From NCBI GenBank assembly GCA_002297365.1, contig DBKT01000013.1:1601-65600 (forward strand): a stretch of 64,000 bases of DNA, given 5' to 3'. How positions within the stretch are numbered: position 1 is the stretch's first letter; each line of letters begins with the position of its first letter. Origin of the DNA: Bacillales bacterium UBA743. Its GTDB lineage: Bacteria; Bacillota_I; Bacilli_A; RFN20; CAG-826. The notes under the pieces are model-generated. The model saw nothing but the letters and a program-made list of their open reading frames with translations, did no database searches and was not told where the DNA came from. The position numbers were made by a program, and so were the translations under genes. Positions 27,206 through 62,272 of this stretch are shown here, piece after piece.

Positions 27206-27206
27206 T

Positions 27207-29977: not shown

Positions 29978-30195
29978 TTTTTTAACTCCGCTATTTATTG
30001 TATTTTTAAAAATGTCGCACAAATGTAAAGGATTGTAAATGTTCATGAAGGAACTCTATTGTTTTCCTTTACGTTCAGAGAATTTCTTTTTAAATACGGA
30101 GAAAATGGAAAATAATTAAAAACGGACGTTTTCTTTTTGTCGAAACAAGCCATTAAACAATTTACGATGAATAGACACATATTCATTGGGAGCCA

Positions 30196-35151: not shown

Positions 35152-35700
35152 GGACTGCTAATCTTTAAGTAGACAGTGCATTACAATTTTGCATGCAGAT
35201 TGCAATGCTCTGTAGACAAGGAGGTTACAAAAATGAAACTAACGAAAGAAGAAAGGCTCCCGGTCGGCAAGATGCTGCACGAAGGGAGCCTTTCCTACAA
35301 GGACTGCATGGAAAAATACGGCGTTTCCAGATCCGCATGCTCCAACTGGGTGAGGGAATACAGGCAAATCAACGGAATCCCCCCAAAAGCCCCCATGGGG
35401 GCTCGCGCCGGCATGGGCCAAAGCGATTACGGATCGATGACAAAGAGCCAGCTCCTCGTTGAGCTGATGCGCAAGGACATCGAGGTCGCGAGACTAAAAA
35501 AAGGTATGCGGTGAAAGGGGGTGGTCGAAAAAAGGAATTCGTTTCTATAAGCGGCTCGAGTACCAAGTGATAATGGAGCTTTCCGGAAAATGGCCGGTCG
35601 TAGCCCTCTGCAGGGTGGACATAGCAAAAGTATACAAATCAATCAAACATTTCTTATCCGCCATGGTCATCTTATAAATCGGCATTGAAACTCCGCGGTC
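35152..35700 (+). mobile_element. Truncated IS3-family element, comprising the left inverted repeat, orfA and only about 50 codons of orfB
   Basis: The IRL reads TGGACTGCTAATCTTTAAGTAGAC. OrfA is a HTH protein (MKLTKEERLP…) with a GGAGG RBS. A frame-shifted orfB start (…WPVVALCRV…) stops after about 55 codons. The segment is GC-rich relative to its surroundings. Confidence 0.7.
35233..35514 (+). CDS. IS3-family transposase OrfA (HTH)
   Basis: See the mobile-element entry above. Confidence 0.65.
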   Translation: MKLTKEERLPVGKMLHEGSLSYKDCMEKYGVSRSACSNWVREYRQINGIPPKAPMGARAGMGQSDYGSMTKSQLLVELMRKDIEVARLKKGMR

Positions 35701-35916
35701 TAAGTAATATCCACCACCTTTGCCGTGTTTCGTTTCAATGTTAAAAGAATAACGTTCGTCTGTTGAAACTTTATCCAATTCCCTTTTATATTCAAGAATA
35801 TTCCTTTCTTTAGTGCCCAATTCTTCAGCTAACTCTTTTATGGAATGAACCCTTCCGTCATTCAAACACCGTAGCATTTCAATGCATTTTGCTGCTTTTC
35901 CTTTTTCTTTTTCCAT
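35545..35916 (-). pseudogene. HTH-WYL-type regulator truncated by the IS3 insertion. Only the N-terminal HTH survives.
   Basis: The N-terminus MEKEKGKAAKCIEMLRCLNDG…ELAEELGTKERNILEYKREL is homologous to the two full-length WYL regulators in this island. The C-terminal approximately 20 residues are read from the IS remnant on the opposite strand. Confidence 0.5.
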
Positions 35917-35968
35917 AATAACACACTCCAAAATATACAAAATCAATAGGCTTTGGGTTAACTTGCTG

Positions 35969-36676
35969 TTAAATTTTCCTTAATCCTTTTTTCCAAAAAA
36001 AGCACGAGGATGGATGGGCGCTTGCAACAAGTCGAAGCCCCCTTCTAATCAAACACTCCGTAACCTTTCCGTTCAGATCATTTGGATTTTTCACATTTTG
36101 AAAACCGCCAGTGCACGAATTTATAATTAGTGAAGGCTTATATTTTACAATACGTTTCAAAAATTCCTTTTTCCCACCGCAAGCCCACACATCCGAAAAA
36201 ACTATATCTCTCGCTTTTTTATTGCCATTCAGCTTCAAATTGCTTGCATTGCTACATTGATACGATACGGCATTAACAAGAAGCAATCGATAAATTCCGT
36301 CTCTCAAATGAATTATTTTACTCGCGATAGCCATATTAAGAACGGGCAATAAGTATTGCTCCAAGTTTCTTCCTGTAGTGGACAAGGCTGGCCCAAGAGG
36401 GGTTGATCCATGATATTCATATTTATGAGGCGATTCCAAAACGATGCAAATCACAGGGCACATCATTCTCTTAAATGTGTCAGTTATTTCTTTTGGCCTT
36501 TTCTTTCCACCAAAATAAATGCACTCGTTTTTGCCAAAAACACAGATACCATTTCTTATCCGAATAATTGCAACGTATTCATCATTAACGGGTCTTGGAG
36601 GAAGACCAGTTCTCATGGTTTTGCAGTTTCCATAATTCCTTATACAGCTTTTTTGAAAGACTAGGCCGAGGTACAT
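35969..36676 (-). CDS. Hypothetical Cys-rich protein (235 aa)
   Basis: It has a GGAG RBS. It contains several Cys and His residues and has no assignable family. Confidence 0.4.
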   Translation of the reverse strand: MYLGLVFQKSCIRNYGNCKTMRTGLPPRPVNDEYVAIIRIRNGICVFGKNECIYFGGKKRPKEITDTFKRMMCPVICIVLESPHKYEYHGSTPLGPALSTTGRNLEQYLLPVLNMAIASKIIHLRDGIYRLLLVNAVSYQCSNASNLKLNGNKKARDIVFSDVWACGGKKEFLKRIVKYKPSLIINSCTGGFQNVKNPNDLNGKVTECLIRRGLRLVASAHPSSCFFWKKGLRKI

Positions 36677-39525: not shown

Positions 39526-39702
39526 CTAAAGCGAGAAGACAATCAAAGCGACCCCTGCGGCAAGTCCTACTACTGCACAAATTCCAAACATGATTCCATA
39601 GAAACCTCTGAGGTTGTCTGGCGTCTTGATGACACAGCCAATTGGCAACCCAATGGCAAATAAGCAAAGAATAATTCCAACGACTAATGTGACTAAATTC
39701 AT
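39526..39702 (-). CDS. Small 2-TM membrane protein (58 aa)
   Basis: MNLVTLVVGIILCLFAIGLPIGCVIKTPDNLRGFYGIMFGICAVVGLAAGVALIVFSL. It starts 12 bp after the FtsH-like gene. Confidence 0.55.
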   Translation of the reverse strand: MNLVTLVVGIILCLFAIGLPIGCVIKTPDNLRGFYGIMFGICAVVGLAAGVALIVFSL

Positions 39703-39713
39703 AATTTTCTCCT

Positions 39714-41039
39714 TTAATTTTTATTTTCAAATACGTCATGTATTTCCTTAGATGAGAGAGATGTTTTCTCAAGCAATCTTGCGGCTAATTTCTCGATTTT
39801 TTCTTTTCCTTCTTCAAGAATTTCTACAGCTCTCTTTGACAACCCTTCTATAATTTCTGTTCCTTTAGCCTGTCTTTCATCCATTATTGTCATACTAAAC
39901 GGTCCACTGTATTCGGGATTCTCAAGAACGATATAATCAAAACCATAGAAGCCTTCATTGAGCATCGCTGAGATCGTTTTTTTCGCTTTTTCAAAGTCGT
40001 CTTGATTGCCCCCAAAGCATTTTCCCGTCATGACCTTTACGGATAAGAAACCAGCTAAGGCTATCATGCAGGTTTCTTCTCCACTTTTAAGTGTGAAAGA
40101 TTCTTGTCCTGTAGATACTGTTTCAGTGGAACCACTTGATTCCCCTTGTTGAAGAAGAGAAACGCTTCCAAGCTTTTCTGGGATAAGGCGGTAAATCATA
40201 TAAGCATGCCCCGCTTCATGATAAGCGGTTAGCTTTTGTTCTTCTTTTGAGCAAGCGGATTCTCTTGGCAAATCCTTAAAGGCAACACGCCGAATCGCAT
40301 ATGTGAAGTCTTGAATAGAAAGAGATTGTTCTCGTTTGGAAACAGCTTGAATGATGACTTCGTTAACAACGCATTCTATATCCGCCCCAGAGAATCCGCT
40401 TGTCATTTTTGCGATTTCATCAACGCTTACTCCCAAAGGCAGGTCCGTTTTTTCCAAGAAGTGTTCAATGATCAATTTTCTTTCTAAATCATTGGGAAGG
40501 GGAAACACAATCTGCCTATCAAACCTTCCGGAACGGCTTAACGCATCTCCTAAATATTTTCTTTCATTGCAAGTTGCAATCACGATGACGCCTTCTTTAG
40601 AGCTGATTTTGTCCAACTCATGTAGAAGAATCTTCTGGTTTTTAAGATTTTCCGTTATTTCGTAAGCATACTTACGGTAGCCTGCAATTTTCTCAATCTC
40701 ATCAATAAATAAAATGGCGCGATCGTTTTCATGTGCCCTTTTGAAGCCGTGATAGATGTCTTCTTCTACGCTCAATTTCCTTTCGATGGCATCTGAAACG
40801 CTAATTTCAATAAGAGGAATATCCAAATACTCCGCAATATCCATCACCAGGCGAGATTTGCCAGTGCCTGGCTGCCCATAAAAGAGCCAGCCTTTTGGAT
40901 AATGGGCTCCTCTTTCGAGATAAAGTTTCTCATTTTGGAATAAATCCACGATTTGAGCCGCTTCTTCCCTTATTTCCCTATATCCAGCGATATGAGGAAA
41001 CATTTTTTGTAATGTAGTTTCGTTAATTTTTTCAGTCAT
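39714..41039 (-). CDS. FtsH-like AAA+ ATPase/M41 zinc metalloprotease that lacks the transmembrane and periplasmic regions
   Basis: Walker A (GQPGTGKSRL), Walker B (ILFIDEIE), the SRH (…LSRSGRFDRQI…) and HEAGH (TAYHEAGHAYMIY). The protein starts only about 50 aa before the Walker A, so it has no N-terminal TM hairpin. Confidence 0.75.
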   Translation of the reverse strand: MTEKINETTLQKMFPHIAGYREIREEAAQIVDLFQNEKLYLERGAHYPKGWLFYGQPGTGKSRLVMDIAEYLDIPLIEISVSDAIERKLSVEEDIYHGFKRAHENDRAILFIDEIEKIAGYRKYAYEITENLKNQKILLHELDKISSKEGVIVIATCNERKYLGDALSRSGRFDRQIVFPLPNDLERKLIIEHFLEKTDLPLGVSVDEIAKMTSGFSGADIECVVNEVIIQAVSKREQSLSIQDFTYAIRRVAFKDLPRESACSKEEQKLTAYHEAGHAYMIYRLIPEKLGSVSLLQQGESSGSTETVSTGQESFTLKSGEETCMIALAGFLSVKVMTGKCFGGNQDDFEKAKKTISAMLNEGFYGFDYIVLENPEYSGPFSMTIMDERQAKGTEIIEGLSKRAVEILEEGKEKIEKLAARLLEKTSLSSKEIHDVFENKN

Positions 41040-41076
41040 ATCTCCTCCTTTCGGAACAAGATTATCTTAAAAGCCA

Positions 41077-41108
41077 TTCCTACATTATTTATGTATGAAT
41101 TCATTTTT
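41077..41108 (-). promoter_or_regulatory. Shared dyad motif, copy A (CTACATtatttATGTAT), 40-60 nt upstream of the FtsH-like gene
   Basis: See finding 3. Confidence 0.55.
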
Positions 41109-41142: not shown

Positions 41143-41640
41143 TTACTTTTTGATGGTCAAAGTTCGACGAAGCATATGAGCCTTGATTTTGAGTTTCTCT
41201 TTTTGCTTTGTATAGAAACGCCCGTATTCGTCCACATATAGACCAGTGACAACGCTCGTATTAAGAAAATCCCAGACAATTAAGTGAACGTTCTTGCCGA
41301 ACTTAACTTTCCCATCGAAAATAATCTTTGTTGGAACGAGGCCGTTGTCTGAGTATTCAGGAACGGGGCAAAACTTTCTTAATTTTTCTACAGCATATTC
41401 TAAAGTTCCAGTTACTTGGTTTCCAGAAAAGGTAATGCGTTGAAAATCAGAATCGTAGAAATTTCCTTGATTGTCCTTATATGCGCCTTCAAGAACAATA
41501 GAAGAACCGTCTTTTTTAACATGTTCAAACCTGCAATAAGACAAAGATGGTCTTATTTGATTTACGCCTGTAAAAGGGAGGCTTATCGTTGTATATGTTA
41601 ATTCGACAAAATTATTTTTTTCATTTAAATGTAGTTTCAT
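41143..41640 (-). CDS. Hypothetical protein (about 165 aa)
   Basis: The ORF overlaps the LemA stop. Confidence 0.45.
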   Translation of the reverse strand: MKLHLNEKNNFVELTYTTISLPFTGVNQIRPSLSYCRFEHVKKDGSSIVLEGAYKDNQGNFYDSDFQRITFSGNQVTGTLEYAVEKLRKFCPVPEYSDNGLVPTKIIFDGKVKFGKNVHLIVWDFLNTSVVTGLYVDEYGRFYTKQKEKLKIKAHMLRRTLTIKK

Positions 41641-41641
41641 A

Positions 41642-42148
41642 CTAAATATCGTTATCATCGAATCCGGCTAGTTTTGTACTAGAATCTAGATTTTGGGAAT
41701 CTATATATTTAGCGTTTTTGAAACGAAAGATCGTTTTTAAAATAACGTTCGGAAATTCATTGATGTATTGATTGTAATCATTCACCAACTTATTAAGTTC
41801 TAATTGAGAATTTTGGTAAGCATCTGCTAAAGAGAGAACGAGATTTCCTGCTAAGGTAAAATGCGAAGATATCTTTCCTGTCGCCCCTCCAATCAACCTT
41901 CCTCCTTGATAAGAAGAATTAGCCACCTTATAAGCGTTCCCTTGCGAAGAATCCGCATCTATGGTTGCAGTTCCTGTCTTTCTCAAAACTTGAAGGTATT
42001 TTGCTTTTGCAATACGCACATTGCTTTGGGCATCACGAATATTTTCTCTTTTGCGGATCACCATATTTCGAAAGCCAATAATCCATCCGATTAACCAGCA
42101 AAAAGCTATAAAACCTAATGCCAATAACATCCATCCCCACCATCTCAT
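41642..42148 (-). CDS. LemA-family protein
   Basis: An N-terminal TM, then …FRNMVIRKRENIRDAQSNVRIAKAKY…, and a C-terminal FPNVILKTIFRFKNAKYI. This matches the LemA pattern. Confidence 0.65.
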   Translation of the reverse strand: MRWWGWMLLALGFIAFCWLIGWIIGFRNMVIRKRENIRDAQSNVRIAKAKYLQVLRKTGTATIDADSSQGNAYKVANSSYQGGRLIGGATGKISSHFTLAGNLVLSLADAYQNSQLELNKLVNDYNQYINEFPNVILKTIFRFKNAKYIDSQNLDSSTKLAGFDDNDI

Positions 42149-43701
42149 AAATTTGATTCCTTGTATTTCAATACATTTATTGCATTTTTTACCTTTTCTA
42201 GATTCACTTTGTGCTTAAACTCGTTCTTCTCTCTATCTGTAAAAACGCATCCATCCTCAATGAGCTTGTTCATGTATTCCCCCGCTTTAGGGAAGCCAAT
42301 AGAACAATGTCTTTGAATGTCGCTTATACCAACTGTTGGCATATTCTCACAATAGAGTAATACTGTAAGATAAGTCACGTCATTTGAATTAGAAACAGGA
42401 GCATTGCCACTTTTTACTTCACCATTTGGAACGAAAGTGTCTGTTTTCGGAGACTCTTTTTTCTTAGCCTTTAATTCAGTGAAGGCGCCCTCCGGCTTCT
42501 TAGAACAGCGCTCGGGATTGATATAGCCTTCTTCGCAAAGACGGTTGAATAAACGACCAGCAACCGGAAAGCCGATGGAATATTTCCTTTGAATAGTACT
42601 GATGCTAATGAATTCATCGTTTTCACAATCTTGGATCAATTCCTGATAAATGATATCCGTTGATTTTTGCTGAGTTTGATTTGAGTTTGTAAGCCCTTCG
42701 GCGTTTTTATTCGTCTGCTCTGGTTTAAGCTCTTTATTCGCCATCTCTGGTTTAAACTTTCTGTTGGATTTCAGAATCTTTCTTCCAATCGTCATTAATT
42801 TATCCCGGAGGATTTGAGGAGAAAGCACTTCGCATTCTCCCTGAAAGTCGAGAATAGCCCTAAGTGTTCCTTCTAAATCCTCTGTATCAAATTTCAAAAT
42901 GACAGAACCATCATCTAAAACCCTTTCCGATTGATTTGCCCCAAGCTCTCTTTTCCCAATGTAAGGGCATAAAGAGGACAAATGAAGTTCTACGTGATAT
43001 ACCTTTTCTTTAAGAAAGTTGAAATCCGTGTTATCAACGTAATCTTCATTGAAAAAATAATCTTTTGAAAAACCGATACCAGAAGTTTTGTATTCTTGAA
43101 TGTTATTTAATTTGATGCATTGATATTTCTTTTGGATTCGTGAATAGCAAAGAAGAAAAAGACTACCATCATCCATAATGAGTTTGTACGGTTCAACATC
43201 GTTTTCGATTGCTTTATGAATCGTGACCACGTAGACAATATGTGCTACAAGCCTCTTTTCAATGCATTTAACAAAGAAATCGTATCGTTCCTTTAACTCT
43301 TTGGTGGATAAAGCAAAACGACTACGGTCCGTTATTTTAACTTTGGGGGTTTCCTTTCCATCCCAACGGATAGCAGAGAAAATTTTGTTCATCGCCTTTT
43401 CAAAATCATCCCGGCAATAGATGGTTCCTTCATTGCTCACATACGAAGAAGCAAAAGCGAGAGAATCTCTTTCTTCCTTTGTAAAGCAAAGGGAGGGGAG
43501 CAAAACGGACTTCTTTAAACAAATCCCGCCATACCTTCCCGATGTAGATTCAAATTCATATCCACATTCTTGAAGTTCTTTCCTATATTCTGAGATGTTT
43601 CTTTCTTTAAAGCCCAAGGTGTTTGCCAATTCGGAGTTTTTATATTTCTTTCCCCCAGCGAGGGCTTGTAGCATCTTGATGCAATTTGCTGTTTTTCCCA
43701 T
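42145..43701 (-). CDS. HTH-WYL regulator fused to two C-terminal FtsK-gamma-like winged-helix domains
   Basis: The N-terminus CIKMLQALAGGKKYKNSELANTLGFKERNISEYRKEL is homologous to the other WYL regulators. The C-terminus carries SISTIQRKYSIGFPVAGRLFNRLCEEGYI and GISDIQRHCSIGFPKAGEYMNKLIEDGCV, which fit the FtsK gamma pattern S.S..QR…IGY.RA.R…LE..G.V. Confidence 0.65.
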   Translation of the reverse strand: MGKTANCIKMLQALAGGKKYKNSELANTLGFKERNISEYRKELQECGYEFESTSGRYGGICLKKSVLLPSLCFTKEERDSLAFASSYVSNEGTIYCRDDFEKAMNKIFSAIRWDGKETPKVKITDRSRFALSTKELKERYDFFVKCIEKRLVAHIVYVVTIHKAIENDVEPYKLIMDDGSLFLLCYSRIQKKYQCIKLNNIQEYKTSGIGFSKDYFFNEDYVDNTDFNFLKEKVYHVELHLSSLCPYIGKRELGANQSERVLDDGSVILKFDTEDLEGTLRAILDFQGECEVLSPQILRDKLMTIGRKILKSNRKFKPEMANKELKPEQTNKNAEGLTNSNQTQQKSTDIIYQELIQDCENDEFISISTIQRKYSIGFPVAGRLFNRLCEEGYINPERCSKKPEGAFTELKAKKKESPKTDTFVPNGEVKSGNAPVSNSNDVTYLTVLLYCENMPTVGISDIQRHCSIGFPKAGEYMNKLIEDGCVFTDREKNEFKHKVNLEKVKNAINVLKYKESNL

Positions 43702-43720
43702 ATAAATCCCCTTTCTTTTT

Positions 43721-44509
43721 TTAATAAATGACTGTACTCATGCAGACAACGGATGCTCTGTTTTTAACATTTCCAGACGTTAAGACAGAAGCGTTCGTGT
43801 AGTTTCCTTCCAAAACAACCTCGCCTGCCGCTTCAATTTGCAGAGTATCTAATGTGCAATTCGCTTTTACGGCTCCGTTCGTTTTTACGGATAAAACTTG
43901 AATAGAATTCAAGGCAATCTCAAAGAGGAAACTCCGTTTTTTAACTTTTTTTAGAGCATCCGCTTGAAAACTAAGATATAGTTCACCATTAGAATCTTTT
44001 TGAAAAATCAACGCATCATTTGGCAAATCATTGCCATTTCCATATATGGTGAAACAGCTCTTGTTTCTCGAAGCTGGATCCGCTCCACTATTTACGATCG
44101 TGATGTCTCCTGAAGGAATATCCAGGGACATGATTCTTGCATCCCCCAAAAAAATCTCCCTTCTCCTATTTAAGAGAATAACATCGGAGGAGAAATGAAT
44201 GGGGGCCTCTTTTGGCATACGGGCAGCAATGCTAGAGTTCTTTTTCACAAAAGGGGACAAGGCCTGAAATACGTCTTCTTTCGGATAAAACATGTTCTTG
44301 TTTGCTATACGGGTCAGCTCTTTTTCATCCAGAAGGGATGCGGGGTCCTCATCTTTTATCAAAGACGTAAGAACGTCAAGAAAGTGCTTTTGAGAGAGGT
44401 TGCCCCCTATAAAATCCGCCAAGAAGGAACACAGGTAGAGAGGTTGCTTGAATATCTGTTCTTTGTCTTCCCTATTAAGAATGATTTTAACTGCTTCAGC
44501 GTAAGTCAT
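43721..44509 (-). CDS. Hypothetical protein (262 aa) with a beta-rich repetitive C-terminal half
   Basis: The C-terminus has short degenerate repeats (VKTNGAVKAN / VLEGNYTNASVLTSGNVKN). Confidence 0.45.
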   Translation of the reverse strand: MTYAEAVKIILNREDKEQIFKQPLYLCSFLADFIGGNLSQKHFLDVLTSLIKDEDPASLLDEKELTRIANKNMFYPKEDVFQALSPFVKKNSSIAARMPKEAPIHFSSDVILLNRRREIFLGDARIMSLDIPSGDITIVNSGADPASRNKSCFTIYGNGNDLPNDALIFQKDSNGELYLSFQADALKKVKKRSFLFEIALNSIQVLSVKTNGAVKANCTLDTLQIEAAGEVVLEGNYTNASVLTSGNVKNRASVVCMSTVIY

Positions 44510-45344
44510 ATTTTGATTCTCCGATTGAATTTAGCAAAAAAAGAAAAAAGATGGTTATTCCAAAAATTATAATGGGAAGAAAGTAGGCTATAAGACTATA
44601 TGTGATAGATCCTTTTTCAGAAGGGAACGAAGATGCAGACACTGCAAAAGAAACGGATAATGCAGCTGCAACGCCAGTTGAATAAGGACGTAGATGAATA
44701 TTGTGTCGGTCACCCTTGTTTACTAAATGTTGATTCACAAAATAAAGAACAATTAAGATGGTTCCTGTAATTAAAGAGAACCAAAAGATATAAGAATCTT
44801 TTTTAAGAGCCCATCCAATCACGCCTCCCATAGTATTCATCAAAAACAAGATTCCATTGACGATGGCTGCGTGCTTTTTCCTGTGTTTCAAATGATTGAA
44901 ATTACTATATTTGTTCCATTTGTTTTCGATAACGGAGCTGAGGCACTGCACAAAGAAGGCGGCAACCCCTATAGCCAACATCATCCAGCAAGAGAAGAAA
45001 GAAGAAATGAAAAGCGCAATGAAAAACAAACAGACAAAAATAGTTAGAAAATAGGCATCATAGAAAATACTGGACTTGTTTTCATCATATTGAATATAGG
45101 ATGACTTATAACCCTCGACACCATGATTTTGATGAGGAACGTATCGATTAGAACGATTGAAGTTATGGGCGCCTCTAGCATTTTGCTTAGGACATTCCCC
45201 TCTCTTCTTTTTAGAAGTCTGAGCAATTCGTTGATTCGGAGGATTATTATCGCTAGAGGGAAAATGAACTATAAAAGGTGGTAGAGCGCCCTTCCTCCTG
45301 CTTCTTCTATTATTCATTTCGAAAGAATACTTATCTCGATTCAC
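44496..45344 (-). CDS. Hypothetical polytopic membrane protein with a basic N-terminal tail
   Basis: An N-terminal Arg/Lys-rich 80 aa is followed by 5-6 TMs. Confidence 0.45.
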   Translation of the reverse strand: MNRDKYSFEMNNRRSRRKGALPPFIVHFPSSDNNPPNQRIAQTSKKKRGECPKQNARGAHNFNRSNRYVPHQNHGVEGYKSSYIQYDENKSSIFYDAYFLTIFVCLFFIALFISSFFSCWMMLAIGVAAFFVQCLSSVIENKWNKYSNFNHLKHRKKHAAIVNGILFLMNTMGGVIGWALKKDSYIFWFSLITGTILIVLYFVNQHLVNKGDRHNIHLRPYSTGVAAALSVSFAVSASSFPSEKGSITYSLIAYFLPIIIFGITIFFLFLLNSIGESKYDLR

Positions 45345-45359
45345 GATATAACCTCCGCT

Positions 45360-46436
45360 CTAGTTTTCTCTAAGTGAAAGCATTCTTTGATAAAGGTATT
45401 GTAGATATTGTCGCATGTATTCAAGGTAATGGTAGATTTCCTCAGGGCAGTAAGATGGGTCCGATAAAATGGATTGTTTTTTCGATAAGTGAACATTGTT
45501 ACGAAGATCGTGAAATTTCTTTCTCATTTGGCCTTCCTTGCTTGAAGAGGGAACGTTAATAATCTTGTTTAGTTCAGCAATGCATTGACGATCCAAGGTC
45601 GGATCATGCTTCGCTGGGCGTTGAATTCCTAATAACATCGCTCCAATTTCAATTTCAATGGCTTCAATAACGCTATATGCTTGGGTAAAGATTTCACGAT
45701 AAATGGCTTTTTCAAGACTTGGATCTAATGCAGGATTAGCCGTGTTAACAAGATCCTTGTAAAAATACATTTCTCTAATGACGATTGCGATGTTATACAT
45801 CGATTCTTTACTTGTGGTTAGATAACGTAAGTTAAAGGCCTCGCAAATCTCATCTAACGTGAAATCGACAGCATTAAAGGAAAATCTAGTATATGGGTCC
45901 GTCATTTTAGGTTTTTGTTTGACAATATCGGAGGAGTTATTAACCATTGGCTGGATAGGCAATTCATTTGATAATCCAGGATTTTTCATGGCCGCCATTA
46001 AAATAGAAGTGGCGCATACTTGTTTTCTAATTCCGTCAAATTCAATTCTTTTCTGATGGGACAGACTTTCTTTTAAATCGTTTGAAAGACTGGCATTGTG
46101 GAAAGAAAATATGAAACCATAGAAAGAAACGTAAAGAACGTCTCCTTGATACTCATAGTAAAAATCAACGTCTTCCCTTTGCGCGCGGGTTTCGTACACG
46201 CATCGTTCTATTTTCCTTTTGAAGGAATAACCAATAGAACGATCTTTTTTTACAGCAAAATTCAAATAATTGAAAGAAGCCCAAACAAGGAAGGCATCCC
46301 CCAAGCTCTTTATTCTTAAATTTTCAATCGTAGAAAAACTACGTTTCACCAAACTATTGTCTACAGAGTTGTTATCAAATTGATGTTCTGCAGCATTTTT
46401 AAGAAGGGCGCTAAATATCGTTTGATAGTTATACAT
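45360..46436 (-). CDS. Hypothetical protein (about 358 aa)
   Basis: The start is placed at MYNYQ, abutting the upstream stop. No motif was recognised. Confidence 0.45.
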   Translation of the reverse strand: MYNYQTIFSALLKNAAEHQFDNNSVDNSLVKRSFSTIENLRIKSLGDAFLVWASFNYLNFAVKKDRSIGYSFKRKIERCVYETRAQREDVDFYYEYQGDVLYVSFYGFIFSFHNASLSNDLKESLSHQKRIEFDGIRKQVCATSILMAAMKNPGLSNELPIQPMVNNSSDIVKQKPKMTDPYTRFSFNAVDFTLDEICEAFNLRYLTTSKESMYNIAIVIREMYFYKDLVNTANPALDPSLEKAIYREIFTQAYSVIEAIEIEIGAMLLGIQRPAKHDPTLDRQCIAELNKIINVPSSSKEGQMRKKFHDLRNNVHLSKKQSILSDPSYCPEEIYHYLEYMRQYLQYLYQRMLSLREN

Positions 46437-46437
46437 A

Positions 46438-47040
46438 TTAAAACTCCGTCCAGCGAAAGCTGTTATTGTTTTCAGAATCATCTGGATTATTATTTTGTGC
46501 ACTAGAATAATCCCTTTCCGAAATCAGTTTTGTTTTGAGTTCAACTTTACTCGGTTCAAAAGAACGAACAACCGTCTTTGTCTTTCTTCCTAAGAAACCA
46601 TATTGAATGCAATGTATGTCACCAAGAACAAACTTTACAACAATTTGAATTTCTCCATCTTGGTTTAAATGTTGAGGCTGAAGAATGATTTCTTTTGTGA
46701 AATATCTTTTGTTTTCGAGCGGAATAACAGGTTCCCCTCCTAAATCAATTTGTTCATACTTATCATTGTCAAAATTTAAAGCGTATACTTTGATACTCAA
46801 TTGAGGCGTTTGAATTTCTTCTAAAAATGCATAAGTATTTTCGGAAGAAACCAATATGCCGTTTCCTTCATTAAACACGTCATAATCAATGTGGTCGAAG
46901 AAAACCCCCAAACGTACACCAATGGTCTTGTCATAGTGGTAAAGTCGGCATTGGTCCGAAATGTTGAAGTTGAATCTTTGATTGTGTTCGCTCACATACG
47001 CTTTAGATTCATTTTCGTCAAAAATATCAGAAACATTCAT
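46438..47040 (-). CDS. Hypothetical protein (200 aa). It is the first gene of the seven-gene unit.
   Basis: An ORF with the dyad motif upstream. Confidence 0.45.
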   Translation of the reverse strand: MNVSDIFDENESKAYVSEHNQRFNFNISDQCRLYHYDKTIGVRLGVFFDHIDYDVFNEGNGILVSSENTYAFLEEIQTPQLSIKVYALNFDNDKYEQIDLGGEPVIPLENKRYFTKEIILQPQHLNQDGEIQIVVKFVLGDIHCIQYGFLGRKTKTVVRSFEPSKVELKTKLISERDYSSAQNNNPDDSENNNSFRWTEF

Positions 47041-47097: not shown

Positions 47098-47132
47098 ATT
47101 CCTACATCATTTATGTATGGATTAAATAAAAG
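47098..47132 (-). promoter_or_regulatory. Shared dyad motif, copy B (CTACATcatttATGTAT)
   Basis: See finding 3. Confidence 0.55.
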
Positions 47133-47141
47133 ATGAATTTA

Positions 47142-47936
47142 TTAAGAATCATCTTTCCAAAGAAGGCCCAAAGAAACATCGTCTCCGATTCCGATTTCTG
47201 TGCCCAATTTGAATACGAAGTCGACTATTTTTTCTTTTTTGCCCTTTTTTAGACTCTCTAAAATAGGTCTTACGCAAGAGGTGCAAAAATTATCAAAAGT
47301 TCTATACGGGTTTATGAAACCATCCGTAAAAACCATGGCTCCATCCACTTCCGAAATAGAAAGGATTTTAAGCCTTATATGTTGATAAGCGTCCGCTTGG
47401 CACATCGAGTACGTGATGTTTGCCACATTATCTTCCTCCTCCTGGAAGATTCTTTCGGCCGTGCCGTTCTTTAAAAGGAAGCAACCACCATCTCCTAAAG
47501 AAACACAAATCAACCTTTTTCCCAAGATCATTGCCCCATTTAAGGTAGTTCCGTATGCGATTTGAGGATCTTGAAGAATTAAAGTTCTTTCATCTTCATC
47601 TAGAATGGAGAGTTCTTTATCGGTGAAGGGGCGCTTAGAAATGTCTTCTTCGACAAGTCCATTCCATTTGCAGAGAATCGCAAGACGGATACGATTTTCC
47701 GCTCGGCTTTCGTTGAGTAAACGTTCCTCGTTTGTTTTCTTAAATACATATAGGATTGCATCGGAGGCAAATTTTGAGCCCCTGTCACTGCGAATATAGA
47801 GCTTTCCTCCATGGCCATCGCAAGAAGTAACAATGGTTCTTGTTTCATCATGATAAGAATCAGAATAGTCCTGACATATAATTCCGTTTTTTATATGAGA
47901 GTAACCAATAGATGTTGTTGTTAAATATTGAACCAT
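47142..47936 (-). CDS. PP2C-family Ser/Thr protein phosphatase
   Basis: N-terminal …GYSHIKNGIICQDYS…TSCDGHGG and C-terminal …MVFTDGF…. Confidence 0.7.
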   Translation of the reverse strand: MVQYLTTTSIGYSHIKNGIICQDYSDSYHDETRTIVTSCDGHGGKLYIRSDRGSKFASDAILYVFKKTNEERLLNESRAENRIRLAILCKWNGLVEEDISKRPFTDKELSILDEDERTLILQDPQIAYGTTLNGAMILGKRLICVSLGDGGCFLLKNGTAERIFQEEEDNVANITYSMCQADAYQHIRLKILSISEVDGAMVFTDGFINPYRTFDNFCTSCVRPILESLKKGKKEKIVDFVFKLGTEIGIGDDVSLGLLWKDDS

Positions 47937-47939: not shown

Positions 47940-48671
47940 TTACCACTCCCAATCGTCTACTTCAGCAATCGCTTGTTGCACTAAACCCTTTATCTCTTCC
48001 GTTTGAGATGGTTTCTTTCCTTTTACTGATGAAGAACTCGATTTCACCTTGGAGGCTGTTATCACTATGATTTTGATGATTCGATTGAGCAAACGTGCGT
48101 CATAACATTCAATTACATCTCCGTTTCCCGAAACAAAATCGTTCAAGCAACGAATGGTTTTCTCATCATTTGATCCAACCGATATACCATATTTCAAAGC
48201 AATTTTGAACCATGGAAGTTTTTGCAAAGAAGACAATTCTGTTTTGATAGCTCCGTTACTAGGATGGCCATCGCTCATCAAGAGAATGATGGGAGCCAAT
48301 CCGCCAAAATCTGGCATGATTCCGCCTTGAGATTCTTTTTTTAAGATTTCGGAAAGAAACTTATAGGCAAGATGGATATTGCTTCGCCCTGCAGCCTTAA
48401 TGCCTTGAAAGCCAAATTTTTTCACTGGCAAGCATTTCTCGTCTTTATAAAACGAAGCTTGGGTGGAATATGTAATCAAGGTAATATAGAAATCAACATT
48501 GGTGTTTTCATCTTCCATCTTCGAAAGATAATCTTTAATTTCAAAAATGGCATCATTTACTTGTTCAATACGGGTACCCCGCATGCTTGAAGAAGTGTCC
48601 ACAAGCAAAATGATATTAAGTCTTTGCTTGGCGATGTTTCCTACAAAGACGTTACCAGTCTGTGTCGACAT
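47940..48671 (-). CDS. vWA-domain protein (TerY-like)
   Basis: MIDAS motif (LLVDTSSSM) and a …LMSDGHP… segment. The C-terminus is acidic (DDWEW). Confidence 0.7.
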   Translation of the reverse strand: MSTQTGNVFVGNIAKQRLNIILLVDTSSSMRGTRIEQVNDAIFEIKDYLSKMEDENTNVDFYITLITYSTQASFYKDEKCLPVKKFGFQGIKAAGRSNIHLAYKFLSEILKKESQGGIMPDFGGLAPIILLMSDGHPSNGAIKTELSSLQKLPWFKIALKYGISVGSNDEKTIRCLNDFVSGNGDVIECYDARLLNRIIKIIVITASKVKSSSSSVKGKKPSQTEEIKGLVQQAIAEVDDWEW

Positions 48672-49416
48672 CGTTCACTTCCTCTAAGTTATTGGCAATC
48701 TCTTTCTGAGCAACATCGTTATTATTAACAAGTCCGTTGCCATTTGAAGAGTTATCTCCGCTATTTGCATCGTTATAAGTTTTACTAGAGGAATTTGATT
48801 TAACTTTAGAGGCCGTTACCGCAATAACTTTGATTACTTTTCTTAAGGCTTCCGCTGTGTAAACCTTTAAAACGGTTTCACGGTTTCCCGTGAATTTAAC
48901 CAAGACGTCCATAGCTTCGTCGGTGTCAACGCCGATAGCAAGAGCGTATTTCAAGGCAACCTTGAACCAACCTTTTTTCTTTAATTCAGCAAGGCAATCT
49001 TCCCAATCAAAAGAAGTTGGATTTCCATCAGTCATTAAGATGATAATTGGGGCAACTCCGCCAATATCAGGCATTTGTCCACCATTACTCTTTTTCCTAA
49101 GCCATTTAGCTAATTCGTCATATGCAGCAGAAAGATTGGTTGCACCATCTATCGAAAGATCGTTCCATTTAAAATCCTCCACATTCTTTGGCTCAGAATA
49201 AATCCATTTAGCAGTATCGCTAAAAGCTAATGCAGAAATTTTAATCGTAGCATCGCTAGTATCCTCTTGAATCTCAGGCATGATACTCACAACGTCTCTG
49301 ATTGCATTATTGACTGCGCCAATCCTCTCCCCCTCCATGGAAGCGGAATTGTCAATCACAAACAGCAAGTTCAATTCTTGCCTTGCAACTCCATCACCTA
49401 AAACTACTTCAGACAT
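48652..49416 (-). CDS. vWA-domain protein (TerY-like). It is a paralog of the previous gene.
   Basis: MIDAS motif (FVIDNSASM) and …LMTDGNP…. The C-terminus is acidic (DVDTDW). Confidence 0.7.
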   Translation of the reverse strand: MSEVVLGDGVARQELNLLFVIDNSASMEGERIGAVNNAIRDVVSIMPEIQEDTSDATIKISALAFSDTAKWIYSEPKNVEDFKWNDLSIDGATNLSAAYDELAKWLRKKSNGGQMPDIGGVAPIIILMTDGNPTSFDWEDCLAELKKKGWFKVALKYALAIGVDTDEAMDVLVKFTGNRETVLKVYTAEALRKVIKVIAVTASKVKSNSSSKTYNDANSGDNSSNGNGLVNNNDVAQKEIANNLEEVNDVDTDW

Positions 49417-50705
49417 AATATTTCTCCCTTAACATTGTCATCAAATTCGATTTGTAGATTTTGAATCAATGGGATGACGCCATTTTTATCAATTTCTTTC
49501 GCAATTCCATTTTTATCCGTAATCTTGACATTCTTATCTAAAAAAAGACGTATCCCTAATAGCCCAGGGTTCTTCTTATTACGGATTACCCTTCCTTTTA
49601 TGGTTTGATAGTCCGAAGAATATTTGTCTAAATGACAAGCATAGATTTCTTTTCCTACATCTAAGACAATCTTGTTCTTTCCGAGTTCTAATACACACAC
49701 GTTCCCCTTACTTTTATGACAAGCAGGGCATTTTTCATAGGACTGTTTCTCTTCAAATCCGTAAATATATTGATAACCGCATTGTGGGCAAGTGATTAAT
49801 TCATCACGGTATTTTGTTAAAAGCCTTAACCACTCTAACTCAGTTGTTCTTTCGTTTTCCCTGTCTAACAATCCATTCACAAAAGTTCTATGGAAAGCCT
49901 CTTTGATATAAAGTGGCAAATACGCCCAACGCTTTAATACAGAAGTGTGATATCCACGGATCGGCCTGTTTGATTTATCCGTCTTGTGATAAATGAAAAT
50001 CGGATTGCTTCCATACATCTCATATTCGGCTTTTTCATCAATAAAGTCATAATCCTTCAACCTTTCCCCCTCAAAAGGATTCCCAAGGCAAAGGGCCATG
50101 AATAAGATAATCCCTAACGAGAAACGATCGGAATGAATGTCTGGCAAGCATTTCCCAGTCACAATTTCTGGGGCCATATATCTCATTTTTCCTAAGACGC
50201 CAAGATTTTTCTTATCTGCGGTCACGTTATCATTGTCACAAATGAGCAAGTCACCTGTCTTTGGATTCAAAAAGAAACTTCCATCATTTAGATCTTGATA
50301 AGAAAAACCTCTTTCGTGTAGAGCTTTGAAATCGGTGCATAAAGAGATACACCACTTCAGCAATAACGTTTGAGTATCAAAAGGATTCTTGCCATTTAAA
50401 TAGGAGATAAAGGAAACATATTCTTTTGGACGCAAATCCATAATGTATCCACTCGTTCCCTTATCATCTTGATAGATTTCTAATGGCCAAAGGAAATCGT
50501 CTGTAGGCCTTCCTTTTTCAATGTTGTGTTTGAGGTTAAAGAGGAAATCAGTGCTCATCTGGCTCTTATAAATTTTTAAAGCGAATTTATTTTTGCCATC
50601 GGATATCAAATAGACTTCACCCTGTCCCCCTTCTCCAAGTAAATCGACGACTTGATAAGTGTGGCCATCTTTAACGCTTATTTCATCGCCTTTTTTAAAA
50701 CGCAT
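49404..50705 (-). CDS. Ser/Thr protein kinase with a C-terminal zinc ribbon
   Basis: Gly-rich loop (LGEGGQGEVY), the invariant Lys (ALKIY), a catalytic YQDLNDGSFF segment, a DFG-equivalent region, and an APE motif (YMAPE). The C-terminus carries CPQCGY…CPACH. Confidence 0.8.
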   Translation of the reverse strand: MRFKKGDEISVKDGHTYQVVDLLGEGGQGEVYLISDGKNKFALKIYKSQMSTDFLFNLKHNIEKGRPTDDFLWPLEIYQDDKGTSGYIMDLRPKEYVSFISYLNGKNPFDTQTLLLKWCISLCTDFKALHERGFSYQDLNDGSFFLNPKTGDLLICDNDNVTADKKNLGVLGKMRYMAPEIVTGKCLPDIHSDRFSLGIILFMALCLGNPFEGERLKDYDFIDEKAEYEMYGSNPIFIYHKTDKSNRPIRGYHTSVLKRWAYLPLYIKEAFHRTFVNGLLDRENERTTELEWLRLLTKYRDELITCPQCGYQYIYGFEEKQSYEKCPACHKSKGNVCVLELGKNKIVLDVGKEIYACHLDKYSSDYQTIKGRVIRNKKNPGLLGIRLFLDKNVKITDKNGIAKEIDKNGVIPLIQNLQIEFDDNVKGEILCLK

Positions 50706-50747: not shown

Positions 50748-50775
50748 ATCCCTACATCATTTATGTGACGATAGG
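50748..50775 (-). promoter_or_regulatory. Shared dyad motif, copy C (CTACATcatttATGTGA)
   Basis: See finding 3. Confidence 0.5.
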
Positions 50776-51160: not shown

Positions 51161-51247
51161 AAAAGTATGAACGAGTATGAAAATATTATAAAAGTATGAA
51201 CGAGTATGAAAGGGTTTTAAAAGTATGAACGAGTATGAAAATAAAAA
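51161..51247 (+). repeat. 3 x 29-bp direct repeats (AAAAGTATGAACGAGTATGAAA + 7 nt). The third copy contains the real start codon of the downstream ATPase.
   Basis: The repeats are exact over 22 nt. Each carries ATGAACGAGTATGAA. The first two ATGs run into a TGA after 10 codons. Confidence 0.85.
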
Positions 51248-52295
51248 GAGCAATCCATTTACGCTATCTTTTGGGAAAAAGCCTTTTGAATATATCGGTA
51301 GGGAAGACAGCAAGAAAGAGCTGATTGGTCAAATTAGTTCCGATCCCGCCACTTCAAATTGTTATGTTATTACTGGCGTGAGAGGCTCAGGAAAAACGGT
51401 AATGCTTACGGCCGTCTCCAAATATTTTGAAACTGATAAAGACTGGATTGTAATCGATCTTAACCCAGAAGATGATTTACGTGAAGGCTTAGCCGCAAAG
51501 CTTTATACCGAAGCAAAAATTAAGCATCTCTTCATGGAAAAAAGTTTTAGCGTCTCCTTTCATGGTGTTTCCTTCAGCCTTTCTGGAAAAAATCCAATAT
51601 ACAACATTGATGATTTGCTAGAAAAAATGTTGGAAGAAATCAAAAGACAAGGGAAGAAGGTGTTGGTCACAATCGATGAAGCAACAAATAACGCCCACAT
51701 GAAGCAATTCGCCTTATCATTTCAATCTTTGATTCGAAAGGAGATTCCGATCGTCTTACTTGTAACGAGTTTGTACGAAAACATTTCCTCATTGGAAAAC
51801 GAGAAAAATATGACATTTCTTATTCGATCTCCAAAAATTTTTCTTTCTCCTCTTAGCATTCAAGCCATCACAAATTCTTATGAATCTAAGCTTGGATTGA
51901 AGTATGAAGAAGCATTAAAATGCGCAAAATTAACAAAAGGTTATGCGTTTGCTTTCCAGTTACTAGGATATCTTATGTTCAATAAAAATAAGAAAGAGGC
52001 GGATAAAGAAGTCTTATCCTCTTACGATCAATATTTAGAAGAATTTGCCTATGCAAAAATATGGTCCACCTTATCTGAGGTCGAAAGAAAGATTGTTATC
52101 TCCCTCCAGACAAATACATCAATTGGTGTATCCACAATATTGGAAAGAACGAACATGAAGAAAGAATATTTCTCCCGTTATAGGGATCGCCTCATCAAAA
52201 AAGGCATATTCCTTTCTCCAGCGAGAGGAAAGCTAATGTTCGCTCTTCCACGTTTTAAGGAATTCATCGATGTTGAGACGGCTTACGATTTCTAA
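51225..52295 (+). CDS. ATP-binding protein of the PF01637 (archaeal-type ATPase) family, with a C-terminal wHTH-like region
   Basis: …FEYIGREDSKKEL…CYVITGVRGSGKTVML… and Walker B (VTIDEA). Confidence 0.6.
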   Translation: MNEYENKKSNPFTLSFGKKPFEYIGREDSKKELIGQISSDPATSNCYVITGVRGSGKTVMLTAVSKYFETDKDWIVIDLNPEDDLREGLAAKLYTEAKIKHLFMEKSFSVSFHGVSFSLSGKNPIYNIDDLLEKMLEEIKRQGKKVLVTIDEATNNAHMKQFALSFQSLIRKEIPIVLLVTSLYENISSLENEKNMTFLIRSPKIFLSPLSIQAITNSYESKLGLKYEEALKCAKLTKGYAFAFQLLGYLMFNKNKKEADKEVLSSYDQYLEEFAYAKIWSTLSEVERKIVISLQTNTSIGVSTILERTNMKKEYFSRYRDRLIKKGIFLSPARGKLMFALPRFKEFIDVETAYDF

Positions 52296-52681: not shown

Positions 52682-54043
52682 TCAACAGGACACATTCTTT
52701 TTTCCTAAAGCAAAAACAAGGTAATATGGCAATGTCAATATTTCATTTTCATACCCAATGTTATAATCACCGAATTTAATCAGCCGAGTAATACCATAAT
52801 GTTCAGGATGCGCCATGACAGTTTTGCTTGATTTGGTATTTCCTGTTTTTGCTTTAGCTTCAATCAACGTAGATACACCATGATATGCAATCACGAAGTC
52901 GATTTGAAGGCCACTTTCTTTTGCGAAATAAAACGTTTGAATGCCCGCCTTATATAAAGAGTCTGCAACCGCCGCTTCAAAAACGTCGCCTTTATTCATC
53001 CCCATTTTTTCCTGCATTAATGAATTCAATGTATCAAAGCCACATAAAGTAATCATCGTCCCGATATCCGAATAATAAAGTTTGAAATCAGAATTGATTT
53101 TTCTTATCGCTAGAGGCAAAGATGGGTTTTCCACATTGTTCACCTTAAAAACAACGTTTGCGTTCAAAAGATAATCAACCGCATCATTTCTCTGATAGCT
53201 GTTCCCGTTTATTCTTGAAAGCACAAACCTCTTATTGTCCGTCAAAGAAAAAGCTAGTGTCAGATCGAAAGCTTTCTGAATTCTAGATATTTCAGTGACT
53301 GTATATAGGGGGTTTCCACCATAATCAACACGTTTAACCGGGTCTCCTTTGACATCAAAAATAAGACTTTCGTTTTTCTTATAAACAACTCCGAAGTTAT
53401 TCGAAGTCAAATATAGACTTACAGTTTCTGGATAGCCTCCAACACACATATATTCTTTGAAAAGAGTTTTCATTTTTTCATGAATCGCGGAAGGAATCGG
53501 CTTTTTTTCTTTGAGATAATTCAATAATTCACTCACTTGTTCTTCTGAATAGCCAGATGCCCAAAGGAATTCTTCAAAATCCATTGTTTTCATGCAAAAA
53601 ACATCTTCAGCACCATTTGGTAAGGGTGTATTTGCGTTTCTTTGCTGCTTTAAATTCAAACCGATATAAGAGCCACTGGCAATAACTTCAAATCTGCCAT
53701 CTTCTTTAAAACTTTTTAACGCTAGGCGAGAGCGCGGGCAATCTTGAATTTCATCCAAAAGGAAAATGGTCTTTCCCGGCTCATAATGGAAATCTTGAAA
53801 TTGAAAGGAAAGTTTTTTGATAATTTCATTTACGTCTAAAGAGCCATCAAAAGCATTCATAGCTTCTGGATTCGTCCAAAAATTAATCGAATTAACATAT
53901 TGAAAATGAGCATTAGCGAACTCTTGAATGCTCCTGGATTTTCCACATTGTCTTATCCCGTAAACCAGGGCAGGCGAATGTCCTTGTGTCTGGTACCAAT
54001 CAAGAAGAACTGTGTCAATTTTCCTTTTTAAATACTTACTCAT
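52682..54043 (-). CDS. AAA_14/DUF4143-type ATP-binding protein (third paralog)
   Basis: Walker A (GIRQCGKSR) and Walker B (FLLDEIQ). Confidence 0.7.
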   Translation of the reverse strand: MSKYLKRKIDTVLLDWYQTQGHSPALVYGIRQCGKSRSIQEFANAHFQYVNSINFWTNPEAMNAFDGSLDVNEIIKKLSFQFQDFHYEPGKTIFLLDEIQDCPRSRLALKSFKEDGRFEVIASGSYIGLNLKQQRNANTPLPNGAEDVFCMKTMDFEEFLWASGYSEEQVSELLNYLKEKKPIPSAIHEKMKTLFKEYMCVGGYPETVSLYLTSNNFGVVYKKNESLIFDVKGDPVKRVDYGGNPLYTVTEISRIQKAFDLTLAFSLTDNKRFVLSRINGNSYQRNDAVDYLLNANVVFKVNNVENPSLPLAIRKINSDFKLYYSDIGTMITLCGFDTLNSLMQEKMGMNKGDVFEAAVADSLYKAGIQTFYFAKESGLQIDFVIAYHGVSTLIEAKAKTGNTKSSKTVMAHPEHYGITRLIKFGDYNIGYENEILTLPYYLVFALGKKNVSC

Positions 54044-61992: not shown

Positions 61993-62272
61993 GTTTTCCT
62001 CCTTTTCATTCAAATAAAAAATTAACGTCTATTAAAAACGCTATCAACAACATACACCCTTTAAGGGTGAAAAGGAAAGGATTTTGCATTAATTTGTTTT
62101 GATGCGAACTATCATCTAGTAATTATGCGCATCTTCCAACATATACAGAGACCTCATAATTGTCGGAACACTCATATGAGCGAACCTTGATTAAATTGTG
62201 AAGCAGAATATTGAAGAATTCGATTTTAAAAAGAAATGCACATCAAGACAAAAAGATAAATTGAAAAGACCG

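Follow-up and report, generated by a model that had tools for sequence, protein, structure and literature searches.

A rare gene cluster in a Bacilli genome couples a TerY-P triad to WYL regulators, an anchorless FtsH-like protease and a candidate HEPN effector behind a shared putative operator

TerY-P triads combine a TerY von Willebrand factor A (vWA) protein with a PP2C phosphatase and a kinase (Anantharaman, Iyer & Aravind 2012; Gao et al. 2020; after PMC11090510). They accompany varied effector systems, the HEPN protein CnuE among them, and the TerY-P version carrying an OB fold defends alone against phage (PMC11090510). The locus considered here lies in a stretch of 64,000 nucleotides (nt) from Bacillales bacterium UBA743 (contig DBKT01000013.1, positions 1,601 to 65,600), hereafter the window, and comprises such a triad and the seven-gene unit g1 to g7 directly downstream of it. 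A preliminary description had proposed g1-g7 as the effector part of an undescribed system. The HEPN-like fold predicted for g2 fits an effector, but the functional unit appears larger than seven genes: a rare, predicted co-regulated cluster of about 16 genes in three operator-marked transcription units. These would be kinase-vWA-vWA-PP2C, then g1-g7, and finally an FtsH-like gene with three micro-protein genes encoding two transmembrane (TM) helices each (2-TM), while a GIY-YIG gene and a second WYL regulator gene (WYL2), both downstream, probably belong to it as well.

The closest described system is the TerY-P-bearing CoCoNuT. Types II and III-A (PMC11090510) likewise include TerY-P in a large operon with a predicted HEPN effector, and some CoCoNuT HEPN domains have shortened motifs, e.g. 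RxH. In contrast, all genes other than TerY-P differ: the window cluster lacks a McrBC-type GTPase or nuclease, the CnuH helicase and coiled-coil proteins; in their place it has WYL regulators, membrane-associated proteins and an FtsH-like protease that is soluble. Single-stranded DNA (ssDNA) is sensed by WYL proteins that repress defence systems (PMC11662680; PMC9122601). Genes of the cluster, in window coordinates as everywhere below and on the minus strand unless stated, were as follows (MIDAS, metal ion-dependent adhesion site; wHTH, winged helix-turn-helix; aa, amino acids).

49404..50705, minus strand: Ser/Thr kinase; zinc ribbon (CPQC...CPAC) at the C-terminus, plus an additional beta-rich domain; Pkinase E=3.8e-14
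48652..49416, minus strand: vWA protein 1, TerY-like; MIDAS DNSAS; VWA E=5e-10; tail ...DVDTDW
47940..48671, minus strand: vWA protein 2, TerY-like; MIDAS DTSSS; VWA E=1e-6; tail ...DDWEW
47142..47936, minus strand: PP2C phosphatase; PP2C_2 E=4e-26
46438..47040, minus strand: g1, 200 aa, all-beta, without family match
45360..46436, minus strand: g2, two-domain protein with a predicted HEPN-like C-domain; candidate RNase effector
44496..45344, minus strand: g3, basic Pro/Asn-rich N-terminal tail and about four to five TM helices
43721..44509, minus strand: g4, helical N-terminal domain and probable C-terminal beta-solenoid
42145..43701, minus strand: g5, 518 aa, wHTH-WYL-WCX regulator with two C-terminal FtsK-gamma winged helices
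41642..42148, minus strand: g6, 168 aa, single-pass membrane protein, LemA-like (sub-threshold)
41143..41640, minus strand: g7, 165 aa, beta-rich domain
39714..41039, minus strand: soluble FtsH-like AAA+/M41 protease; AAA E=1e-25; Peptidase_M41 E=2e-16
39526..39702, minus strand: 2-TM protein, paralogue a, 58 aa; gene call in L088; 72% identical in L002
39247..39423, minus strand: 2-TM protein, paralogue b, 58 aa
39025..39225, minus strand: 2-TM protein, 66 aa; 42-59% identical to L002, L085, L087 and L093
38391..38891, minus strand: GIY-YIG-like protein; GIY-YIG E=4.5e-6; gene call in L088
37399..38379, minus strand: WYL2, second wHTH-WYL-WCX regulator, a g5 paralogue without gamma domains

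A palindromic motif preceded all three units. The sequence ACATAAATRATGTAGGRAT occurred exactly three times in 64 kb against 0.12 copies expected, and three copies were reached by no shuffle. Its core is a perfect 15-bp palindrome, TACAT-N5-ATGTA, and the operator has a non-palindromic GGAAT extension.

50748..50766, minus strand: motif 1 (ACATAAATGATGTAGGGAT), upstream of the kinase operon
47098..47116, minus strand: motif 2, upstream of g1
41076..41094, minus strand: motif 3, upstream of the FtsH-like gene and downstream of g7

In the window the palindrome lay 9-10 nt upstream of a -10-like hexamer, which centres it near -31, in the place of a -35 box; motif sequence and distance to the -10 box were conserved in L001-L003. 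L002 and L003 carry motif 1 in an unchanged position, again with a -10-like hexamer 9-10 nt downstream. Motif 2 was also found upstream of g1 in L002, L003, L087 and L095 (40 nt upstream in the last, the minimal variant described below), and the position of motif 3 held in L001-L003, L085, L087, L093 and L094. The upstream motif that the triad and g1-g7 had been said to share is thus real and kept across lineages; in the variants it precedes FtsH-like, micro-TM, g1, kinase and WYL genes. Only nine of the 93 loci compared displayed it, and all nine carried the system. A consensus promoter and terminator scan returned nothing above shuffles and no canonical promoter at the motif sites. As judged from sequence, TACAT-N5-ATGTA overlaps the putative -35 region of three promoters and is the predicted operator for the WYL regulators of the cluster, shared by its three transcription units.

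Gene order was conserved well beyond the window. L002 and L003 displayed the same 12-gene order, kinase-vWA-vWA-PP2C-g1...g7-FtsH-like, with protein identities to the window of 31-92%: 82-92% for g6, kinase and FtsH-like, 48-60% for g5 and 31-42% for g3, the fastest-evolving gene of the unit. More distant versions, from metagenomes, were reached by a g2 search, namely variant 2 (L085, L087), variant 3 (L093, L094) and the minimal variant L095. Variant 2 starts with an FtsH-like gene, a WYL2 orthologue (L085 only), a 66-aa gene and a second FtsH-like gene; continues with kinase, a single vWA, PP2C, g1, g2, a soluble protein in the g3 position and g4; and ends with a 694-aa WYL-WCX protein carrying about five gamma-like wHTH repeats, followed by a fusion of g7 to Toastrack (DUF4097). 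Variant 3 reads kinase-vWA-PP2C-g1-g2-g3'-g4'-FtsH-like-67aa-WYL-gamma. L095, a 3.3-kb contig without TerY-P, displayed g1-g2-g3'-WYL behind an ABC-ATPase gene. The portable core is therefore g1-g2-g3 plus WYL and not all seven genes. Order and operator recurred in at least four divergent variants. The GC content of carrier loci spanned 27% to 45%, which implies that the system was transferred from host to host.

The cluster was rare. It was absent from all 80 related GTDB loci; pattern scans built on the g6 alignment found none in GTDB genomes or IMG/VR, which is weak evidence as the patterns are W-rich TM peptides; in JGI/ENA metagenomes they picked up a single contig of 1.8 kb. Chromosomal genes flank the island (mfd, ftsH, lysS, dnaB and the transfer-messenger RNA (tmRNA) gene), and the nearest genomes were uncultured gut or rumen Bacilli metagenome-assembled genomes (MAGs), among them ones titled as an "Erysipelotrichaceae" RUG MAG and Candidatus Enterosoma. 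In L007, L008 and L012 lysS directly follows the ABC transporter gene, and in L005 only a decayed STAND-ATPase remnant separates the two; because the site is empty or nearly so in these four, the segment 31752-54379 (22.6 kb) is regarded as an insertion.

The seven open reading frames (ORFs) of the unit lie on the minus strand between 47040 and 41143, as the preliminary description had it, and are indeed tightly packed: one-nt gaps separate g1/g2 and g6/g7, wider ones g2/g3 (15 nt) and g4/g5 (19 nt), while g3/g4 and g5/g6 overlap by 14 and 4 nt. The mechanical ORF list held longer forms of g2 (start 46502) and g7 (start 41658); orthologue alignments favoured the starts 46436 and 41640. Other claims of that description were borne out as well. 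The unit adjoins the triad, and several divergent lineages repeat the gene order beside kinase/vWA/PP2C genes. Four of the seven genes have no recognisable domain: for g1, g2, g4 and g7, Pfam (down to matches at E<=10), NCBIfam, PHROGs, PADLOC and PDB sequences all came back empty. Remote homology placed none of the unknown genes in housekeeping.

The effector candidate is g2. Its AlphaFold2 (AF2) model, built from nine sequences, reached a pLDDT score (predicted local distance difference test) of 77.6 and displayed two domains (1-155 and about 185-358). A fold assignment was not obtained for the N-domain (1-155). The C-domain was modelled as a four-helix HEPN-like fold, and its best Foldseek probabilities fell on HEPN toxins, with E-values that were not significant. 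A stretch LRNNVHLSK.QSI, with R312 and H316 at the two ends of RNNVH, was invariant across all nine sequences, down to 35% identity. An RNase effector role is consistent with this modelled fold, and g2 is a candidate for it. Compared with HEPN toxins (MNT-HEPN such as HI0074 and SO_3166; RnlA/LsoA; the AbiA C-terminal domain), g2 has an Rx3H and not an Rx4-6H motif and an extra N-domain of 155 aa; its upstream partner g1 is all-beta, unlike the MNT nucleotidyltransferase of MNT-HEPN pairs. In all variants g1 stood immediately upstream of g2, with a conserved N-terminus (DIFDE..SKAYVS) and C-terminal tail (NWTEF), which makes it a candidate partner or inhibitor of g2; its AF2 model (eight close homologues) gave no usable fold (pLDDT 40).

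The third core protein, g3, was correctly described beforehand as a polytopic membrane protein with a highly basic N-terminal tail: about four to five TM helices follow a tail with 17 K+R in 88 aa, an isoelectric point of 10.3 and a PPFIxH motif. Elsewhere among the variants a soluble beta domain stands in for the TM part while the tail stays similar, as in variant 2, where it is equally basic. Matches to a hidden Markov model of the soluble form were found in L094 and L095. The N-tails of the two forms could be aligned by hhalign (E=4.7e-4), and the conserved part is the basic, Pro-rich tail.

After the FtsH-like and micro-TM genes, L002 (11975-14296) and also L001 encode a 773-aa protein, by eye repeat-rich (possibly Sel1/TPR-like), which ends in a canonical HEPN-type RNPSCH; in L001 its gene is followed by a TM paralogue of g3 (28% identical). 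This protein may represent another HEPN candidate linked to the same system.

The triad itself displayed all TerY-P components, i.e. vWA proteins with MIDAS, a PP2C and a kinase with C-terminal zinc ribbon, encoded by overlapping genes in one operon upstream of conflict genes as in described triads. The kinase, with CxxC pairs at 306 and 326, was 92% (L002) and 83% (L003) identical and matched only the generic PADLOC kinase models mad6 and PD-T4-6, while the vWA and PP2C proteins matched no PADLOC model at E<=1e-3. Further differences from described triads are the two vWA copies (single-copy in L085/L087 and L094), the zinc ribbon plus extra beta-rich domain of the kinase in place of the OB fold of the validated stand-alone system, and the coupled gene set, which was not found reported in the literature examined. 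Acidic/aromatic C-terminal tails were seen on vWA1 (...DVDTDW), vWA2 (...DDWEW) and g1 (...NWTEF), near 48652, 47940 and 46438, respectively; that of g1 was conserved in most variants. They may be docking peptides for a common partner.

The regulator g5 was confirmed as a protein with an HTH-WYL N-terminus and two tandem FtsK gamma copies. It matched Pfam FtsK_gamma (PF09397) in two stretches (E=1.1e-15; 57.5 bits against a gathering threshold (GA) of 30.6), with winged helices at about 346-405 and 441-500 that carry the SIS.IQR..SIGF..A motif, and scored above threshold on WCX (34.5 bits, GA 23.9), marginally below it on WYL (20.3 bits, GA 21.8), and at E=2e-19 and 4e-16 on PADLOC WYL models. 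A P-loop motor domain was not found in g5 by Pfam profile search. The gamma domain binds FtsK-orienting polar sequences (KOPS) and activates XerD. The g5 copies differ from FtsK/SpoIIIE gamma in standing in tandem on a transcription factor, without a translocase motor, and in evolving fast: compared with L002 the regulator core was 72-77% identical, the gamma repeats 42-52% and the linkers 13-23%. Across variants, gamma-like wHTH copies numbered from two to about five.

That gamma is not normally found on transcription factors also held, and its fusion to WYL proved very rare. Among 5.8 billion clusters, a g5 search returned only three proteins of the same architecture, one of them identical to g5; the contigs of the other two carry the 12-gene order given above. 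Among 1.84 billion representatives, 764 proteins matched g5 at E<=1e-3; the best 150 of these included three long gamma-bearing proteins (P0002, and P0013 and P0015, both Pfam-verified), one 175-aa protein matching the gamma region only, and two with another enzyme domain (HAD or RtcB), the remainder being nearly all plain WYL-WCX proteins, about 315 aa long, along with some shorter fragments. All three verified WYL + gamma proteins are encoded in loci of this system.

WYL2 scored 56 bits on Pfam WYL, was 33% identical to g5 and had an orthologue (49.5% identical) within the L085 cluster. In the HTH alignment the recognition helix RNI.EY.KE was common to all WYL paralogues, g5 and WYL2 included, so the two may bind the same site. 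With BrxR, CapW and DriD (PMC9122601, PMC11662680, PMC10853764) g5 shares the three-domain core, a palindromic, putatively bound site at promoters, the placement of regulator genes with presumed targets in a defence-type island and the presence of two paralogues; it differs by its added FtsK-gamma-like winged helices (two to about five, counting variants).

The FtsH-like protein retained intact Walker A/B motifs, Arg fingers and HEAGH. By alignment it lacks the TM/periplasmic N-terminus, and its pore-1 loop reads RKLS in place of MFVG. It was 82-88% identical in L002/L003 and about 51% in variants 2 and 3. With FtsH and with IetA of IetAS, its best PADLOC match (E=6e-30), it shares the AAA+ module and M41 HEXXH peptidase; it differs from FtsH in lacking the membrane anchor, in the altered pore-1 loop and in a TIGR01241 score of 248 bits, far below the equivalog cut-off of 600, and from IetAS in being paired with 2-TM micro-proteins in a cluster without an IetS-like serine protease. 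The 66-aa 2-TM gene adjoined an FtsH-like gene in every locus covering the region (L002, L085, L087, L093, L094). A small protein of the variant-2 cluster displayed, by eye, a Y[VI]G...RLTQH motif similar to that of the GIY-YIG-like protein, with no BLAST match between the latter and the small protein of L085. The genuine membrane-anchored FtsH of the host (59809-62013, minus strand; TIGR01241 753 bits) lies 19 kb from the anchorless paralogue and is 31% identical to it.

Among the remaining members of the unit, g4 was conserved in variants 2 and 3, and its C-terminal part is probably a beta-solenoid, as its sequence suggests: the L085 orthologue gave a weak FapA beta-solenoid match (E=0.002). 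Its assignment as a Toastrack domain was not upheld, the hhalign match to the Toastrack region being weak (E=0.027) beside that solenoid match. For g6 (88% and 83% identical in L002/L003, absent from variants 2-4) the earlier LemA call survived in part. The protein is LemA-like, with an N-terminal TM helix (hydrophobic segment at residues 3-31) ahead of a domain of about 140 aa and LemA 2etd as best PDB sequence match (E=0.05); its Pfam LemA score is sub-threshold (22.7 bits against 26.2), and the alignment is limited to the C-terminal motif (profile positions 100-138 of 149). g7 was 36-37% identical over 121 aa to L085/L087 proteins (BLAST, E=1e-22), in which its domain forms the N-terminus of the Toastrack fusion. 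The L085 fusion scored 38.3 bits on Pfam DUF4097 (threshold 22.9), a profile matched by no window protein. Toastrack has been proposed as a sub-membrane assembly platform and is tied to PSP/Lia systems (PMC11237479). The variant-2 Toastrack protein and the TM-anchored, LemA-like g6 of the window, both beside signalling proteins and transcription factors, recall those systems and LemA; the window cluster differs in lacking PspA, PspC, LiaF and Toastrack and in its sub-threshold LemA match. LemA as a partner in PSP/Toastrack systems was not upheld, as PMC11237479 does not mention it.

With a probability of about 0.5, the region 50766-37399 encodes a single conflict system that is accessory and horizontally mobile, WYL-regulated, phosphorylation-gated and equipped with a HEPN effector; most likely it acts against phage by abortive infection, the defence role being what we infer for it. 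In such a system, dimeric wHTH-WYL-WCX proteins (g5 and/or WYL2) would occupy the operator, and their WYL domains would bind a nucleic-acid cue such as ssDNA and switch transcription, by analogy with CapW, BrxR and DriD. The gamma winged helices of g5 would add DNA contacts, either to the GGAAT extension of the operator or to other DNA. TerY-P (kinase with zinc ribbon, TerY vWA, PP2C) would act as a post-translational phospho-switch on downstream proteins. The portable cassette g1-g2-g3 would supply the effector, with the HEPN domain of g2 cleaving RNA once released or activated, while g4, g6, g7 and the 2-TM micro-proteins would hold the machinery at the membrane, and the anchorless FtsH-like protease would remove an inhibitor (possibly g1) or turn the effector over.

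Several observations weigh against this. The HEPN call for g2 combines a medium-confidence model with helical-bundle fold matches; Foldseek against PDB and BFVD gave no significant E-value, sequence-level similarity to HEPN proteins was not found, and the motif RNNVH (Rx3H) is one residue short of the canonical HEPN Rx4-6H, shortened motifs having been reported in TerY-P-linked HEPN proteins (PMC11090510). g1, g4 and g7 are still without fold assignment, and no PADLOC model matched g1-g4, g6, g7, either vWA protein or PP2C. For g2, tblastn yielded no match among the plasmids of PLSDB or the phages of INPHARED, and a scan of IMG/VR with the g2 alignment gave none; the gamma region of g5 had none among INPHARED phages, and the island lacks an integrase. 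The paralogue bound to the operator could be g5 or WYL2 and may be a repressor or an activator. Finally, a role in envelope stress would suit the membrane components too.

That last point leads to a rival reading, in which the cluster is an accessory response to envelope stress or for membrane repair, comparable to Psp/Lia, with damage signalling by the kinase and PP2C, quality control by membrane parts and the FtsH-type protease, and WYL transcription factors. A TM-anchored LemA-like g6, a polytopic g3, three 2-TM micro-proteins, an FtsH paralogue in the cluster and the fusion of g7 to Toastrack, a PSP/Lia-linked domain, would all suit it. We consider it unlikely, as the membrane parts are the least constant ones (g6 is missing from variants 2-4 and the TM domain of g3 is swapped for a soluble one) while g1, the HEPN-like g2, the g3 tail and WYL stay constant, and as a rare insertion missing in close relatives is unlike a physiological stress regulon. 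To much the same degree we doubt that the cluster is cargo of a decayed mobile element, a toxin-antitoxin-like addiction or exclusion module of HEPN protein and regulators that stabilises the island and does not defend the host. HEPN toxins are classic toxin-antitoxin components, the GC range among carriers implies horizontal transfer, and the 22.6-kb insertion also holds a truncated WYL fragment in a decayed neighbourhood. Yet 31752-54379 contained no integrase, transposase, relaxase or replication gene, the plasmid, phage and IMG/VR collections yielded no match, and at least 12 genes go far beyond the needs of an addiction module.

Less credible again is a DNA-processing or segregation function centred on FtsK-gamma, in which g5 would act on XerCD-type recombinases, by recruitment or activation, or serve as a reader of KOPS-like polarity signals, and the rest would serve chromosome or element maintenance. 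The tandem FtsK_gamma matches above the Pfam threshold and the copy number varying from two to about five speak for it; the cluster, however, has neither a translocase motor nor a recombinase or dif-like site, within g5 it is the gamma repeats that evolve fast, L095 and other contexts point to a regulator role, and all other components are signalling, protease or effector-like. Lowest of all stands a chance adjacency of g1-g7 to a functionally unrelated triad. Although L095 carries g1-g2-g3 and WYL on a 3.3-kb contig without TerY-P, the same operator precedes both units and the neighbourhood is kept in the window, L002, L003, L085, L087, L092 and L094 despite 35-70% protein divergence; with shared operator and conserved synteny this alternative is essentially refuted.

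Other features of the island and its surroundings were recorded. The lysS/ABC transporter site has the appearance of a hotspot where accessory or defence genes insert. Three DUF4143/AAA_14 ATPase genes (32548-33837, plus strand; 33852-35135 and 52682-54043, minus strand) matched the PADLOC candidate family PDC-S01 with E-values down to 1e-157. The truncated wHTH of a third WYL regulator (35545-35946, minus strand) and the N-terminus of the WYL protein in L001 were 60% identical. The adjoining gene (35969-36676, minus strand) encodes an unknown protein of 235 aa, a relative of which, with 36% identity, is encoded next to the variant-2 cluster (L087 16177-16743). A divergent STAND-like ATPase gene (51225-52295, plus strand) was conserved in L009 and, at 83%, in L003, while L002 and L005 keep decayed forms. 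It was rejected as a member of the system: no operator precedes it, variants 2-4 do not have it, and relatives without the system, or with a contig ending at this place, also show it, intact or decaying, by the ABC transporter gene. A 29-bp tandem repeat at 51161-51243 (2.9 copies, 87% matches) covers its ribosome-binding site and first codons; its 5' end has therefore been triplicated.

Outside the island, an ABC-transporter operon (25188-30046) lies between lysS and the gene at 24080-24523, while in L005, L007, L008 and L012 lysS and the counterpart of that gene are only about 0.7-1.4 kb apart, a second indel. The tmRNA gene (16445-16843, minus strand) encodes an unusually long tag peptide, DNSYIYANRAQRVSYAAA. 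MAG contigs L005, L006, L012, L013, L022, L030 and L041, with genes 57-98% identical to those of the window, bear implausible titles (among them Escherichia coli, Faecalibacterium prausnitzii, Hallerella, Alistipes, Roseburia and Parasutterella), which points to mislabelled bins in that submission series.

Every recognisable part of the cluster is of a known kind: TerY-P triad, WYL regulators, HEPN effector, AAA+ protease, Toastrack. Unmatched in PADLOC or the literature examined were the combination of parts, the WYL-gamma fusion, the anchorless FtsH-like protein with its micro-TM partners, and the g1, g4 and g7 families and g2 N-domain, which have no detectable relatives. As a long shot, the tandem gamma array may be a DNA-reading sensor which, through FtsK-like recognition of short skewed words or engagement of Xer-type recombinases, tells host from invading DNA and triggers a proteolysis- and phosphorylation-gated HEPN suicide response at the membrane; if true, it would be a new self/non-self sensing principle in bacterial immunity.

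How TerY-P triads gate diverse effector sets is not understood, and the cluster is a compact, clearly delimited case, which unites one shared operator, two WYL paralogues, a phospho-switch, a probable HEPN effector and an anchorless FtsH-type protease. If it is a defence system, it would represent a new multi-gene type and a tractable model of how transcription, phosphorylation and proteolysis control an abortive-infection effector in uncultured Bacilli of the gut.

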